A stretch of DNA of 64,000 nt from Escherichia coli (GTDB taxonomy: Bacteria > Pseudomonadota > Gammaproteobacteria > Enterobacterales > Enterobacteriaceae). Position numbers and translations under genes: made by a program. A model generated the notes under the pieces. That model searched no databases, was not told the origin of the DNA, and saw nothing but the letters and a program-made list of their open reading frames with translations. The stretch is taken from the NCBI RefSeq assembly GCF_036507355.1, contig NZ_AP027877.1; one strand, given 5' to 3'. The stretch's first letter is position 1. Each line of letters starts with the position of its first letter. Of this stretch, positions 2,571 to 6,079 are shown piece after piece.

Positions 2571-3914
2571 ATGTTAAACAGTATTTTAGTCATACTCTGC
2601 TTGATCGCTGTAAGTGCGTTCTTCTCGATGTCCGAGATCTCGCTTGCCGCCTCACGCAAAATCAAACTTAAACTGCTGGCTGATGAAGGCAATATAAATG
2701 CCCAACGCGTTCTGAATATGCAGGAAAATCCCGGCATGTTCTTTACCGTGGTCCAAATCGGTCTGAACGCAGTGGCGATTCTCGGCGGTATCGTCGGTGA
2801 TGCGGCATTTTCTCCAGCTTTTCACAGCCTGTTCTCCCGCTATATGTCGGCAGAGCTCTCTGAGCAACTGAGCTTTATTCTCTCTTTCTCGTTAGTGACT
2901 GGCATGTTTATCCTGTTTGCGGATTTAACCCCGAAACGCATCGGTATGATTGCGCCAGAAGCTGTGGCTTTGCGTATCATCAACCCGATGCGCTTCTGCC
3001 TGTACGTTTGCACCCCGCTGGTGTGGTTCTTCAACGGCCTGGCGAACATAATCTTCCGTATTTTCAAACTGCCAATGGTACGTAAAGATGACATCACTTC
3101 TGATGACATCTACGCGGTAGTGGAAGCCGGTGCGCTGGCGGGCGTGTTACGTAAACAGGAACACGAGCTGATTGAAAACGTCTTTGAGCTGGAATCCCGT
3201 ACCGTTCCGTCTTCAATGACACCGCGTGAAAACGTGATTTGGTTTGATCTCCACGAAGATGAGCAAAGCCTGAAGAATAAGGTGGCGGAACATCCGCACT
3301 CTAAGTTCCTCGTCTGTAATGAAGATATTGACCACATCATCGGTTATGTCGATTCTAAAGACCTGCTGAACCGCGTGCTGGCTAACCAAAGCTTGGCACT
3401 GAACAGCGGCGTACAAATTCGCAACACGCTGATTGTGCCGGATACGTTAACCCTTTCAGAGGCGTTGGAAAGTTTTAAAACCGCAGGTGAAGACTTCGCG
3501 GTGATCATGAACGAGTACGCGCTGGTGGTGGGGATCATCACCCTCAATGACGTGATGACCACGCTGATGGGCGATCTGGTCGGTCAGGGGCTGGAAGAGC
3601 AGATTGTCGCCCGTGATGAGAACTCATGGCTGATTGACGGCGGCACCCCAATTGACGACGTCATGCGCGTGCTGGATATTGACGAGTTCCCGCAGTCGGG
3701 CAACTACGAAACCATCGGCGGCTTTATGATGTTTATGCTGCGTAAGATCCCGAAACGCACCGATTCGGTGAAATTCGCCGGCTACAAATTTGAAGTGGTG
3801 GATATCGATAACTACCGCATCGACCAGCTGCTGGTGACCCGGATCGACAGCAAGGCCACCGCCCTTTCGCCAAAACTGCCTGACGCTAAAGATAAAGAAG
3901 AAAGCGTCGCGTAA
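2571..3914 (+). CDS. ytfL: UPF0053/CNNM-type inner membrane protein (CBS pair and CorC_HlyC domains)
   Basis: ORF track 447 aa; hydrophobic N-terminus; family call from recognised sequence. Confidence 0.9.
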   Translation: MLNSILVILCLIAVSAFFSMSEISLAASRKIKLKLLADEGNINAQRVLNMQENPGMFFTVVQIGLNAVAILGGIVGDAAFSPAFHSLFSRYMSAELSEQLSFILSFSLVTGMFILFADLTPKRIGMIAPEAVALRIINPMRFCLYVCTPLVWFFNGLANIIFRIFKLPMVRKDDITSDDIYAVVEAGALAGVLRKQEHELIENVFELESRTVPSSMTPRENVIWFDLHEDEQSLKNKVAEHPHSKFLVCNEDIDHIIGYVDSKDLLNRVLANQSLALNSGVQIRNTLIVPDTLTLSEALESFKTAGEDFAVIMNEYALVVGIITLNDVMTTLMGDLVGQGLEEQIVARDENSWLIDGGTPIDDVMRVLDIDEFPQSGNYETIGGFMMFMLRKIPKRTDSVKFAGYKFEVVDIDNYRIDQLLVTRIDSKATALSPKLPDAKDKEESVA

Positions 3915-3930
3915 CCCCCAGAAACATCAA

Positions 3931-3951
3931 CGGCTCCTGAATCAGGAGCCG
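3931..3951. terminator. Hairpin between convergent ytfL and ytfK, probably bidirectional
   Basis: cggctcctg-aat-caggagccg, 9-bp perfect stem. Confidence 0.55.
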
Positions 3952-3956
3952 TCTTA

Positions 3957-3990
3957 TTACTGCATAGCACTTTTTACTGCATAGCACTTT
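3957..3990. repeat. Perfect 17-bp tandem duplication (TTACTGCATAGCACTTT x2)
   Basis: Units at 3957-3973 and 3974-3990 are identical and directly adjacent, ending 2 nt before the ytfK stop codon. Confidence 0.9.
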
Positions 3991-3992
3991 GG

Positions 3993-4199
3993 TTAAGCCA
4001 TCTCTGTTTGCAGACGCATAACCTGACGGTTAACTTCGGACATCACTGACAAATGCAGCTTATCCTTCACTTTTGGGATAAGAATCTTACCCTTATCAAA
4101 TTCAAAAGCGCCAACGTCCTTGATGTATAACCGTCCACGGAACAGGATCTTTACGTACTTCGCCACCTGAAGTGGGTTGTACCGTTGGAAAATTTTCAT
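3993..4199 (-). CDS. ytfK: Small protein YtfK (68 aa)
   Basis: ORF track 3993..4265; internal ATG at 4197-4199 gives [16 protein letters not shown]...; SD ggaga upstream. Confidence 0.9.
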
Positions 4200-4523
4200 T
4201 GTTATCTCCTGCTGAGTATTACGCCTGTGCGGTGCCACAATCGGCCCAACTATTATGAGGCGCAAATTTTAATGCTTAGTGACTATAGACTATCCGGGCA
4301 ATGTTTCCACCGCGTATAACTTTTTTTACCTAAAGGTTACAATTATTCAGAATTATCTTTTTACCGAAGCGCGGTCTTCAGTATAAGCATTCATTTTTCA
4401 TATGATTTGTGCGCTTGACCGCAAACTGGCATCACACTTGCGGGAAATTCGATAAATAGCACATATGATTAAAACTCAGACCCAAGTGGTCGGATCACCT
4501 GCATATCATAAGAAGGAAACACC

Positions 4524-5078
4524 ATGACCCTACGCAAGATTCTGGCACTCACCTGCCTGCTGTTGCCGATGATGGCTTCCGCACATCAGTTCGAAACCGG
4601 TCAGCGAGTGCCGCCGATTGGCATTACCGATCGGGGCGAGTTGGTGCTTGATAAAGATCAGTTTAGCTACAAAACCTGGAACAGCGCGCAGTTAGTGGGA
4701 AAAGTGCGAGTACTGCAACATATTGCTGGTCGCACCTCTGCAAAAGAGAAAAACGCGACGCTGATTGAAGCGATTAAATCAGCGAAGTTACCGCACGATC
4801 GTTACCAGACCACCACCATTGTTAACACCGACGACGCGATTCCGGGTTCCGGCATGTTTGTGCGCAGCAGTCTGGAGAGTAATAAAAAGCTTTATCCCTG
4901 GTCGCAGTTTATTGTCGATAGCAATGGCGTCGCGCGCGGTGCCTGGCAGCTGGATGAAGAAAGTTCTGCTGTAGTGGTGCTGGATAAGGATGGTCGCGTG
5001 CAATGGGCCAAAGACGGGGCGCTCACACCGGAAGAGGTGCAGCAAGTGATGGACCTGCTGCAAAAGTTGCTCAAATAA
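4524..5078 (+). CDS. ytfJ: Periplasmic protein YtfJ with signal peptide
   Basis: ORF track 184 aa; N-terminus MTLRKILALTCLLLPMMASA is signal-peptide-like; SD aaggaaa. Confidence 0.9.
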   Translation: MTLRKILALTCLLLPMMASAHQFETGQRVPPIGITDRGELVLDKDQFSYKTWNSAQLVGKVRVLQHIAGRTSAKEKNATLIEAIKSAKLPHDRYQTTTIVNTDDAIPGSGMFVRSSLESNKKLYPWSQFIVDSNGVARGAWQLDEESSAVVVLDKDGRVQWAKDGALTPEEVQQVMDLLQKLLK

Positions 5079-5167: not shown

Positions 5168-6079
5168 TCATACTGGTAACGCTAGTTGCTCTTTTTTAAA
5201 CGCCTCAATGGTCGATTTATATTTCTCGCAAATCTTTTCTTTGGTAATATCACTATCTGCGGCCAGATTCGCACTTACTATCGCATCCACTTGTTCGGCT
5301 AATTCGACTTGTTGGCAACCTGCATTAACCAGAAAATTATAAATAAGAGAGTAATCTTCATCCTCCAAAACAACAGAGGAACCATTACGAAAACGTTCAT
5401 CCCCTCCATAGATTTTAAGCGCAAAGCCCAAAGATTCTATGACTATGGCAAAATTATCATCAATTATTTTTTCGTAAATATACCATCCATCGCATTCTTT
5501 AATTCCACCTCCTGGTATTTGGAGTTCAAATTTACCCCGTTTTAATTTGCTTACTATATCCTCCAATAAGGCATAACCTAAAGACACGTCACCAATCGCC
5601 TGGTGAATATAACCTTTAATCCTTTTCGGTATGTCAGACTGTTTTTTCTGCAGAATATCCCAGGCATACAATCGTCTGTTTTGTTCTAACGGAAATTCAC
5701 GGTTTTTGAAATCCATGAATGAGTTATACTCATTTATTGTTATGGGGATTTCTTCGTATTCAAATCCACTGCCTCGCAATGTCATTGTATATTCGGCACC
5801 GTTATCTTTAAGGCTGAAACTGATAAGAAACTTATCCATGGCTTTAACAGTTTCATTTTTTGATGAAAGCACTTGATAACTACTTTTATCAATCTGAGTT
5901 GCGCAACGAAAGAACTCCCGCAAAGTTAACAGGCTATCATAATTTGAAATCCAATCTTTTTTATTAAATGCATGCTGGATATTGTTAAAAAAATTGTTTG
6001 AATGTGTTTTTGTATACGAAGACTTTACAAATAACTCCACCGCACCAATAAAATTATTGTGTCTGATCCTGGGTAACAT
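5168..6079 (-). CDS. ytfI: Uncharacterised protein YtfI (low-GC gene)
   Basis: ORF track 303 aa; AT-rich coding and upstream region; no motif recognised. Confidence 0.8.
   Translation of the reverse strand: MLPRIRHNNFIGAVELFVKSSYTKTHSNNFFNNIQHAFNKKDWISNYDSLLTLREFFRCATQIDKSSYQVLSSKNETVKAMDKFLISFSLKDNGAEYTMTLRGSGFEYEEIPITINEYNSFMDFKNREFPLEQNRRLYAWDILQKKQSDIPKRIKGYIHQAIGDVSLGYALLEDIVSKLKRGKFELQIPGGGIKECDGWYIYEKIIDDNFAIVIESLGFALKIYGGDERFRNGSSVVLEDEDYSLIYNFLVNAGCQQVELAEQVDAIVSANLAADSDITKEKICEKYKSTIEAFKKEQLALPV

Follow-up and report, generated by a model that had tools for sequence, protein, structure and literature searches.

Between the convergent genes paeA (= ytfL) and ytfK of Escherichia coli, a 17-bp sequence stands twice in tandem, almost touching the ytfK stop codon, and the question that this raises is whether the second copy is a passing product of replication slippage or whether the unit has a function that is multiplied along with it. 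In the window (the whole 64-kb stretch of DNA analysed here), sequence reading and a pattern search place TTACTGCATAGCACTTT at 3957-3973 and again at 3974-3990, head to tail and with no mismatch, confirming the perfect duplication at 3957-3990, 2 nt from the ytfK stop codon, that an initial annotation of the region had described. On the + strand the order is ACGGCTCCTGAATCAGGAGCCGT, CTTA, TTACTGCATAGCACTTT and again TTACTGCATAGCACTTT, GG and the TTA that represents the stop codon (3993-3995); both units belong to the − strand transcript, unit 1 (3957-3973) being proximal to the terminator and unit 2 (3974-3990), of the same sequence, proximal to the stop, and ytfK mRNA reads them as AAAGUGCUAUGCAGUAA. 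The ytfK coding sequence, for a stringent response modulator of 68 amino acids, covers 3993-4199 on the − strand with its true start at 4199 (from the open reading frame and the RefSeq annotation of identical or near-identical DNA), and that of paeA covers 2571-3914 on the + strand (from the open reading frame and the RefSeq annotation of matching DNA). Tandem Repeats Finder reports the array at 3953-3990 with period 17, 2.2 copies and a score of 69, the extra 0.2 copy being CTTA at 3953-3956, which aligns with CTTT, the last four bases of the unit. By an arithmetic estimate, about 64000 × 4^-17, or 4e-6, perfect adjacent 17-mers are expected by chance in the window, and with two perfect 17-bp units the locus has the at least two head-to-tail units that define a variable-number tandem repeat (VNTR).

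A pattern search allowing up to three mismatches found no third copy of TTACTGCATAGCACTTT elsewhere in the 64-kb window, and no Rfam family matched positions 3000-5000 even at E ≤ 1, which leaves the unit without a known RNA family. We considered a dispersed extragenic repeat of the REP/BIME, IRU or box C type and rejected it, the array occupying a single place in the window and a median of one place per E. coli genome, with no Rfam match. Compared with MG1655 (4438000-4442500), the window is 99.6% identical, with 17 SNPs over 4.5 kb and no gaps, and the counterpart of both repeats lies at 4,439,796-4,439,829. At the position of ytfI, the window has an open reading frame of 303 amino acids from its first in-frame start (5168-6079, − strand), which ends beyond the stretch compared with MG1655, where the ytfI feature (4437707-4438645) implies 312 amino acids.

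On its other side the array is flanked by a G+C-rich hairpin (3930-3952), common to the two convergent genes and resembling a bidirectional intrinsic terminator, which a terminator scan accepts on both strands. Its stem, ACGGCTCCTG/CAGGAGCCGT, can be drawn with 10-11 bp and a 3-nt loop or with 8-9 bp and a 5-nt loop, and its tails are weak T-tracts with a continuous T run on neither side (CTTATTACTG on the + strand, GATGTTTCTG on the − strand). The hairpin that the initial annotation had placed beside the repeat is thus present, but 4 nt rather than 6 nt from the first unit, and its stem differs from the 9 bp given there. In the bidirectional intrinsic terminators between convergent genes reportedly described by Ju et al. 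(2019), one G+C-rich hairpin serves both genes, as the hairpin here would serve paeA and ytfK; at this locus, however, the repeat lies outside the hairpin, which is unaltered. In an alignment of outgroup loci, the terminator stem ACGGCTCC/GGAGCCGT and the GTTGATGTTT that follows it hardly change from genus to genus, in contrast to the variable loop, a degree of conservation that exceeds the need of a generic terminator.

Copy number and ancestry of the unit

A 151-nt query around the repeat matched a single locus in 5,419 of the 5,426 complete E. coli genomes, and allele classes were separated by long-flank blastn searches that forced gapped alignments. Because this collection is rich in K-12 laboratory derivatives and O157:H7 outbreak isolates, the following are frequencies of alleles in a biased set and not in the population: 4,165 genomes (77%) carry one copy (e.g., SK1144 and AVS0750), 1,031 two (e.g., K-12 strains and Nissle 1917), 217 three (mostly O157:H7, the listed examples all being O157:H7 or unlabelled and including Sakai and EDL933) and 3 four (strain 472, O157:H7 PA20 and the 'culture mutant' 20R2R, one of them verified by regular expression), with 3 further genomes giving partial matches, one of them because IS1 is inserted where ytfK ends. 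In representative loci, the alleles have one, two or three perfect units between otherwise near-identical flanks. Copy numbers of 2, 3 and 4 were seen on the O157-type flank, marked by a T variant, and copy numbers of 1 and 2 on both the K-12-type and the Nissle-type flank (the latter with G>A and a C deletion); since each of the three haplotypes occurs with more than one copy number, copy-number changes have recurred, the independence of these events being judged from short flank haplotypes and not from a genome phylogeny. The locus is therefore a VNTR with 1-4 copies and recurrent changes.

Copy number also varies among genomes labelled O157:H7, most of which have 3 copies, whereas PA20 and 20R2R have 4; these two would be related strains, to judge from their names and shared Pennsylvania origin. 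The O157:H7 strain E32511 has 2 copies on a T-variant flank, and TR01 and PV15-279 have 2 copies as well, the flank of TR01 being of the K-12 type across the 151 nt compared. In E. coli A30, ytfK is removed or truncated by an IS1A that sits right at its 3' end, behind GGTTAAGCC (470-520 of that locus, corresponding to about 3991-4000 of the window), and the one unit of this strain has T>A at its first base. The ytfK-paeA spacer also matches three places on plasmid records.

Among 80 species representatives with ytfK, we found no species outside E. coli with more than one full unit, a single full unit being present also in E. albertii, E. whittamii and unnamed Escherichia species. One copy is the ancestral state, because every outgroup has one full unit. 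Alignment of the spacer against other genomes, as the initial annotation had proposed, thus identifies one unit as ancestral, the stop-proximal unit 2 being missing in all outgroups and in 77% of E. coli genomes; two units fixed in all relatives, the pattern that it had associated with an ancient feature, were not found, the outgroups carrying one. The unit of the one-copy allele stands between two CTT that are 17 nt apart (CTTA-TTACTGCATAGCA-CTTT), microhomology of the kind that we infer to have seeded a slipped-strand duplication. A recent slippage or duplication event had been proposed from the sequence of the window, and of this the derived nature of the second unit stands, as does an origin of the slippage type, which fits the CTT...CTT bracket; its timing does not, since we see not one recent event in one strain but a multi-allelic VNTR (1-4 copies), whose multi-copy alleles are shared by over 1,200 genomes and whose copy number changed independently on no fewer than three flank haplotypes.

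Complementarity to FnrS

FnrS is an FNR-induced, Hfq-dependent small RNA of anaerobic cells. In MG1655 its gene (1409129-1409250) contains UUUUUUGAAUUACUGCAUAGCACAAUUGAUUCG, and nt 65-78 of the RNA, TTACTGCATAGCAC, are identical over exactly 14 nt to the + strand of the 17-bp unit. The ytfK mRNA, transcribed from the − strand, carries GUGCUAUGCAGUAA, the perfect complement of these nucleotides, so that the array comprises two putative pairing sites on that strand: site A at 3956-3970, with 15 nt perfectly matched to FnrS nt 64-78 and a predicted isolated duplex of -24.8 kcal/mol, and site B at 3974-3987, with 14 nt matched to nt 65-78 and -23.7 kcal/mol. On both strands of the 64-kb window, the two units are the only stretches complementary to FnrS over at least 12 nt. 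When the 70-nt 3'UTR was shuffled 5,000 times, the longest run was 12 nt, reached twice, against the 15 nt observed; judged by these comparisons of sequence, the complementarity of the unit to FnrS is beyond chance.

By folding and in the Rfam structure, FnrS nt 64-78 lie partly within a weak internal hairpin (mean unpaired probability 0.43). They abut the U-rich region that serves characterised targets such as yieP, which pairs through the U-rich seed of FnrS (U61) and not through nt 64-78, and in other genera the ytfK pairing reaches into this U-rich region. Owing to this adjacency, a bound ytfK 3'UTR could plausibly block FnrS from other targets. Characterised FnrS targets (sodB, yieP, iscR and others) share with ytfK the small RNA and its chaperone, and the link of ytfK to oxidative stress fits FnrS-repressed genes; they pair, however, at translation-initiation regions and, where mapped, through upstream FnrS sequence (U61 in the case of yieP), whereas the predicted ytfK pairing uses nt 64-78 and lies past the stop codon. 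Pairing with FnrS is the likely route for any effect of the unit on mRNA fate.

The conservation of the region follows the complementary block. A core, GTGCTATGCAGTA on the ytfK strand, directly past the stop codon, is kept in 22 of the 26 sequences of our alignment and conserved across most Enterobacteriaceae, as in the genera Escherichia, Salmonella, Citrobacter, Enterobacter, Kosakonia and Lelliottia, and further in Leclercia, Yokenella, Trabulsiella, Phytobacter and Pluralibacter, between a linker and an A-rich spacer that both vary across genera. In 54 of 80 species the complementarity to FnrS nt 63-80 is unbroken over 12 nt or more (typically 13-16), as it is in 66 of 80 if G.U pairs are counted, in which case the longest runs comprise 25 pairs (Kosakonia) and 23 pairs (Kosakonia and some Citrobacter). 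The commonest core substitution, found in the Citrobacter freundii group and in Raoultella, is A>G, by which the pair is retained as G.U. FnrS (Rfam RF01796) was located beside zntB in eight further genera, and its nt 1-93 are invariant in all nine; in the sampled genera there is consequently no variation on the FnrS side with which ytfK could covary, only the one-sided, pairing-preserving A>G in the site, and the invariance of FnrS explains the constancy of the ytfK side. The Rfam consensus suggests that the FnrS of more distant taxa (Yersinia, Serratia and Pectobacterium) differs in the hairpin (gagucacUgcaUagcAu). Of the 5,426 complete E. coli genomes, 5,389 carry FnrS with an identity of at least 99%; 3 have it at 90-95% identity, and 34 gave no match.

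In Klebsiella species (L019, L020, L022, L041 and L049) the FnrS-complementary block is lost from the ytfK 3'UTR, with a longest run of 6-8 nt, which indicates that the site is dispensable in some lineages. Raoultella (L062, L063, L066 and L070) keeps 12 pairs, one of them G.U, and the FnrS of Raoultella terrigena is unchanged across the pairing region. In several non-Escherichia genera (L084, L077, L087, L086, L088 and L010), a second 'GCAGTA' half-site lies between the conserved block and the terminator, at about 1025-1045 of those loci and downstream of the ytfK stop codon, and looks as if the 3' half of the FnrS-complementary site had been partially duplicated there, independently.

That FnrS and the ytfK 3'UTR are abundantly captured together in an Hfq-dependent manner has been established by others. 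In the supplement of a 2025 preprint (PMC12262471), 'ytfK.EST3UTR - fnrS' heads the S-chimeras (rank 1) of the two wild-type Hfq-FLAG RIL-seq replicates from K-12 cells grown in LB to an OD600 of 1.0, with 112,573 and 85,192 chimeras, whose position is given only by the label EST3UTR and a whole-gene range and is not resolved to the repeat; the rank-2 pair, chiP/ChiZ-ChiX, has 46,504 and 49,671. The same tables list 11,463 and 14,864 ytfK-fnrS chimeras for Hfq K31A, 995 and 1,985 for the distal-face mutant Y25D, and, in the columns that we take as the rim-face mutant R16A, 11 in one replicate and none detected in the other; the pair went undetected by the iRIL-seq protocol (PMC12262471). A second small RNA, BhsB, likewise forms chimeras with ytfK. 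In Salmonella, ytfK mRNA was enriched 31.8-fold by Hfq co-immunoprecipitation (PMC2515195), and the RNA of Salmonella ytfK (STM14_5292) is strongly activated by sigma-S in stationary phase while the protein is not (PMC5437024), a mismatch that might hint, though it is only a hint, at a role of the transcript at the RNA level. The gene has been linked to oxidative-stress tolerance. In the literature searched, only a single sentence of PMC12262471 and its supplementary tables bear on ytfK as an FnrS target, and we found no description of the pairing site, of its position past the stop codon or of the repeat, no report of a pairing-dependent regulatory outcome or sponge activity for FnrS and ytfK, and no paper that names or uses the locus as a typing VNTR.

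Each unit may also bring a place for Hfq. Reading the − strand, we find two candidate (ARN)3 motifs, AGUAAUAAG at 3953-3961, overlapping the 3' end of site A, and AGUAAAAAG at 3970-3978, formed at the junction between the units. A-R-N triplets are the type of motif that is bound by the distal face of Hfq, and the candidate motifs fit the loss of chimeras in the Y25D mutant. As the second motif arises at a unit-unit junction, each added unit would bring its own A-rich motif. Cofolding of full-length FnrS with the 3'UTR predicts a net gain of about -17 kcal/mol for one FnrS, and for multi-copy 3'UTRs -35 kcal/mol with two FnrS and -54 kcal/mol with three, against -3.4 kcal/mol for a control with no copy; the FnrS sites are predicted to be roughly half unpaired whatever the allele. 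With a single copy, the pairing core begins 5 nt past the stop codon, so that a terminating ribosome would, we speculate, probably cover part of it, extra copies lying farther out.

What the array may do

From these observations we propose, with a probability of roughly 70%, that the 17-bp unit is an FnrS/Hfq binding module in the ytfK 3'UTR whose number is varied by slippage, and we predict an interaction between FnrS and ytfK that depends on copy number. The module would consist of a 14-15-nt perfect FnrS site followed by an A-rich (ARN)3 stretch for the distal face of Hfq, and the ancestral state in Enterobacteriaceae would be a single module between the ytfK stop codon and the terminator hairpin. 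In E. coli, replication slippage at CTT...CTT, 17 nt apart, would have duplicated this module, and slippage between identical units would then have expanded and contracted the array to 1, 2, 3 or 4 modules depending on the lineage, with 2 in the window and in K-12 and usually 3 in O157:H7. Every added unit would offer a further docking place for the FnrS-Hfq complex on the ytfK transcript, with two conceivable outcomes: either FnrS acts on the ytfK mRNA, in low oxygen most likely by lowering its stability, or the ytfK RNA titrates FnrS away from its other targets as a sponge, a reading for which the abundance of the chimeras and the rise of ytfK RNA without its protein in stationary-phase Salmonella are circumstantial signs. 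Several observations speak against the proposal: FnrS nt 64-78 are partly buried in an internal hairpin and are not the seed used by characterised targets, the RIL-seq labels do not place the chimeras on the repeat, iRIL-seq did not recover the pair, Klebsiella has lost the site, and 77% of the E. coli genomes do with a single copy. For the direction of regulation, the simultaneous occupancy of sites and a phenotypic effect of copy number, we go by inference from the arrangement of the locus.

The main rival accepts the ancestral unit as a real FnrS site and takes the extra copies for a neutral slippage polymorphism, functionally and selectively irrelevant. It draws on the single copy of 4,165 of the 5,419 E. 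coli genomes and of all outgroups, on the recurrence of changes on several haplotypes, as mutation-driven noise would give, and on the first site alone already binding FnrS at about -17 kcal/mol in cofolding. Against it, successful clones are nearly fixed for multi-copy alleles (three copies in 217 genomes, mostly of O157:H7, and two in K-12-like and Nissle-like lineages), a second GCAGTA half-site was apparently gained independently in the same spacer of other genera, and predicted FnrS binding is additive with copies; none of the three proves an effect, and we regard neutrality of the extra copies as rather unlikely but as a serious contender.

An effect independent of small RNAs, by which a longer spacer between stop codon and terminator would alter termination or the 3'-end stability of ytfK (or paeA), seems to us improbable. 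The repeat does sit between the stop codon and the sole terminator-like hairpin, and the 3'UTR does grow by 17 nt with each unit. In the allele alignment, however, the hairpin and the 21 nt that follow it toward the repeat (the 4-nt spacer and the 17-nt terminator-proximal unit) have the same sequence in every allele, and the minimum-free-energy fold keeps the hairpin unchanged at 1, 2 or 3 copies; an effect of copy number on termination is unlikely because hairpin and repeat-side flank do not change, and termination is probably unaffected. The altered termination contemplated in the initial annotation thus finds no support in the alleles. A longer spacer would, moreover, leave both the conservation of the core across genera and the match to FnrS unexplained.

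A far less probable possibility is that the conserved block serves as a protein-binding site, an RNase site or a DNA operator and that its complementarity to FnrS is a coincidence. The core does contain a small inverted repeat, TGC-NNN-GCA, and the invariance of FnrS leaves no covariation signal to read, but a perfect match of 14-15 nt was never attained in the shuffles, the conserved block is the complementary block, the A>G substitutions keep the pairing as G.U, and the pair ranks first among Hfq-bound chimeras in vivo. An assembly or sequencing artefact is hardly conceivable, with the two-unit allele in 1,031 independent complete genomes and discrete alleles of 1, 3 and 4 units in others.

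If the unit is indeed an FnrS/Hfq binding module, the ytfK array would be most like an sRNA sponge or decoy, such as the chbBC-ChiX trap, or like a target site in a 3'UTR, differing from both as a tandem array that varies between strains. Hfq-dependent sponges and decoys include the chbBC-ChiX trap, the 3'ETS-leuZ, SroC, PspH and RbsZ; like the ytfK 3'UTR, they are abundant Hfq-bound RNAs with long, near-perfect complementarity to one small RNA and a high rank in RIL-seq, but the ytfK site belongs to the 3'UTR of an mRNA that is translated, closely behind the stop codon, and occurs in a number that varies between strains. Among target sites within mRNA 3'UTRs, that of Spot 42 in the hilD 3'UTR of Salmonella is reportedly an example, in which, as suggested here for ytfK, Hfq-dependent pairing downstream of the coding sequence would affect the fate of the mRNA and not ribosome binding; the ytfK pairing is much longer, perfect, deeply conserved, tandem and polymorphic. 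With VNTR loci used in MLVA typing, the array shares identical head-to-tail units, gain and loss of the slippage type and discrete alleles between and within clones (as in O157:H7), but it has a low copy number (1-4), a longer unit (some MLVA loci have hexamer units) and a molecular function that can, as it appears from the sequence, be identified. By analogy only, eukaryotic 3'UTRs with multiple miRNA sites and ceRNA or circRNA sponges follow the same principle, the number of identical sites setting the binding capacity, with Argonaute in the place of Hfq and no homology. While target sites and sponges of sRNAs are well known, a natural example from bacteria of strains that differ, by way of a VNTR, in how many identical sRNA sites one transcript carries is not known to us.

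Neither the two-copy sequence, long known as that of the K-12 reference genome, nor the RNA pair, which has been reported, is new; the novelty appears to lie in linking the repeat to the FnrS-ytfK pair and in the variation between strains. In one K-12 RIL-seq dataset no Hfq-bound pair is more abundant than this one, for which the literature searched offers no characterisation. The pair links FnrS, a small RNA of oxygen limitation, to YtfK, a modulator of the stringent response. YtfK is an activator of SpoT-dependent (p)ppGpp synthesis. As the K-12 reference carries a minority allele with two sites, and O157:H7 one with three, results obtained in K-12 may not transfer to other strains, and the natural alleles with 1, 2, 3 and 4 copies provide a ready allelic series for experiments. 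More tentatively, and rating it less likely than not, we suggest that E. coli lineages may tune a small-RNA circuit through the array, the ytfK transcript acting as an FnrS sponge or target of adjustable copy number, so that the coupling between oxygen limitation and the stringent response would differ by strain. If so, K-12 with 2 sites, O157:H7 with 3-4 and most wild E. coli with 1 would differ in the strength of coupling to the other targets of FnrS, and the top-ranked pair of the K-12 interactome would be in part a K-12-specific amplification.
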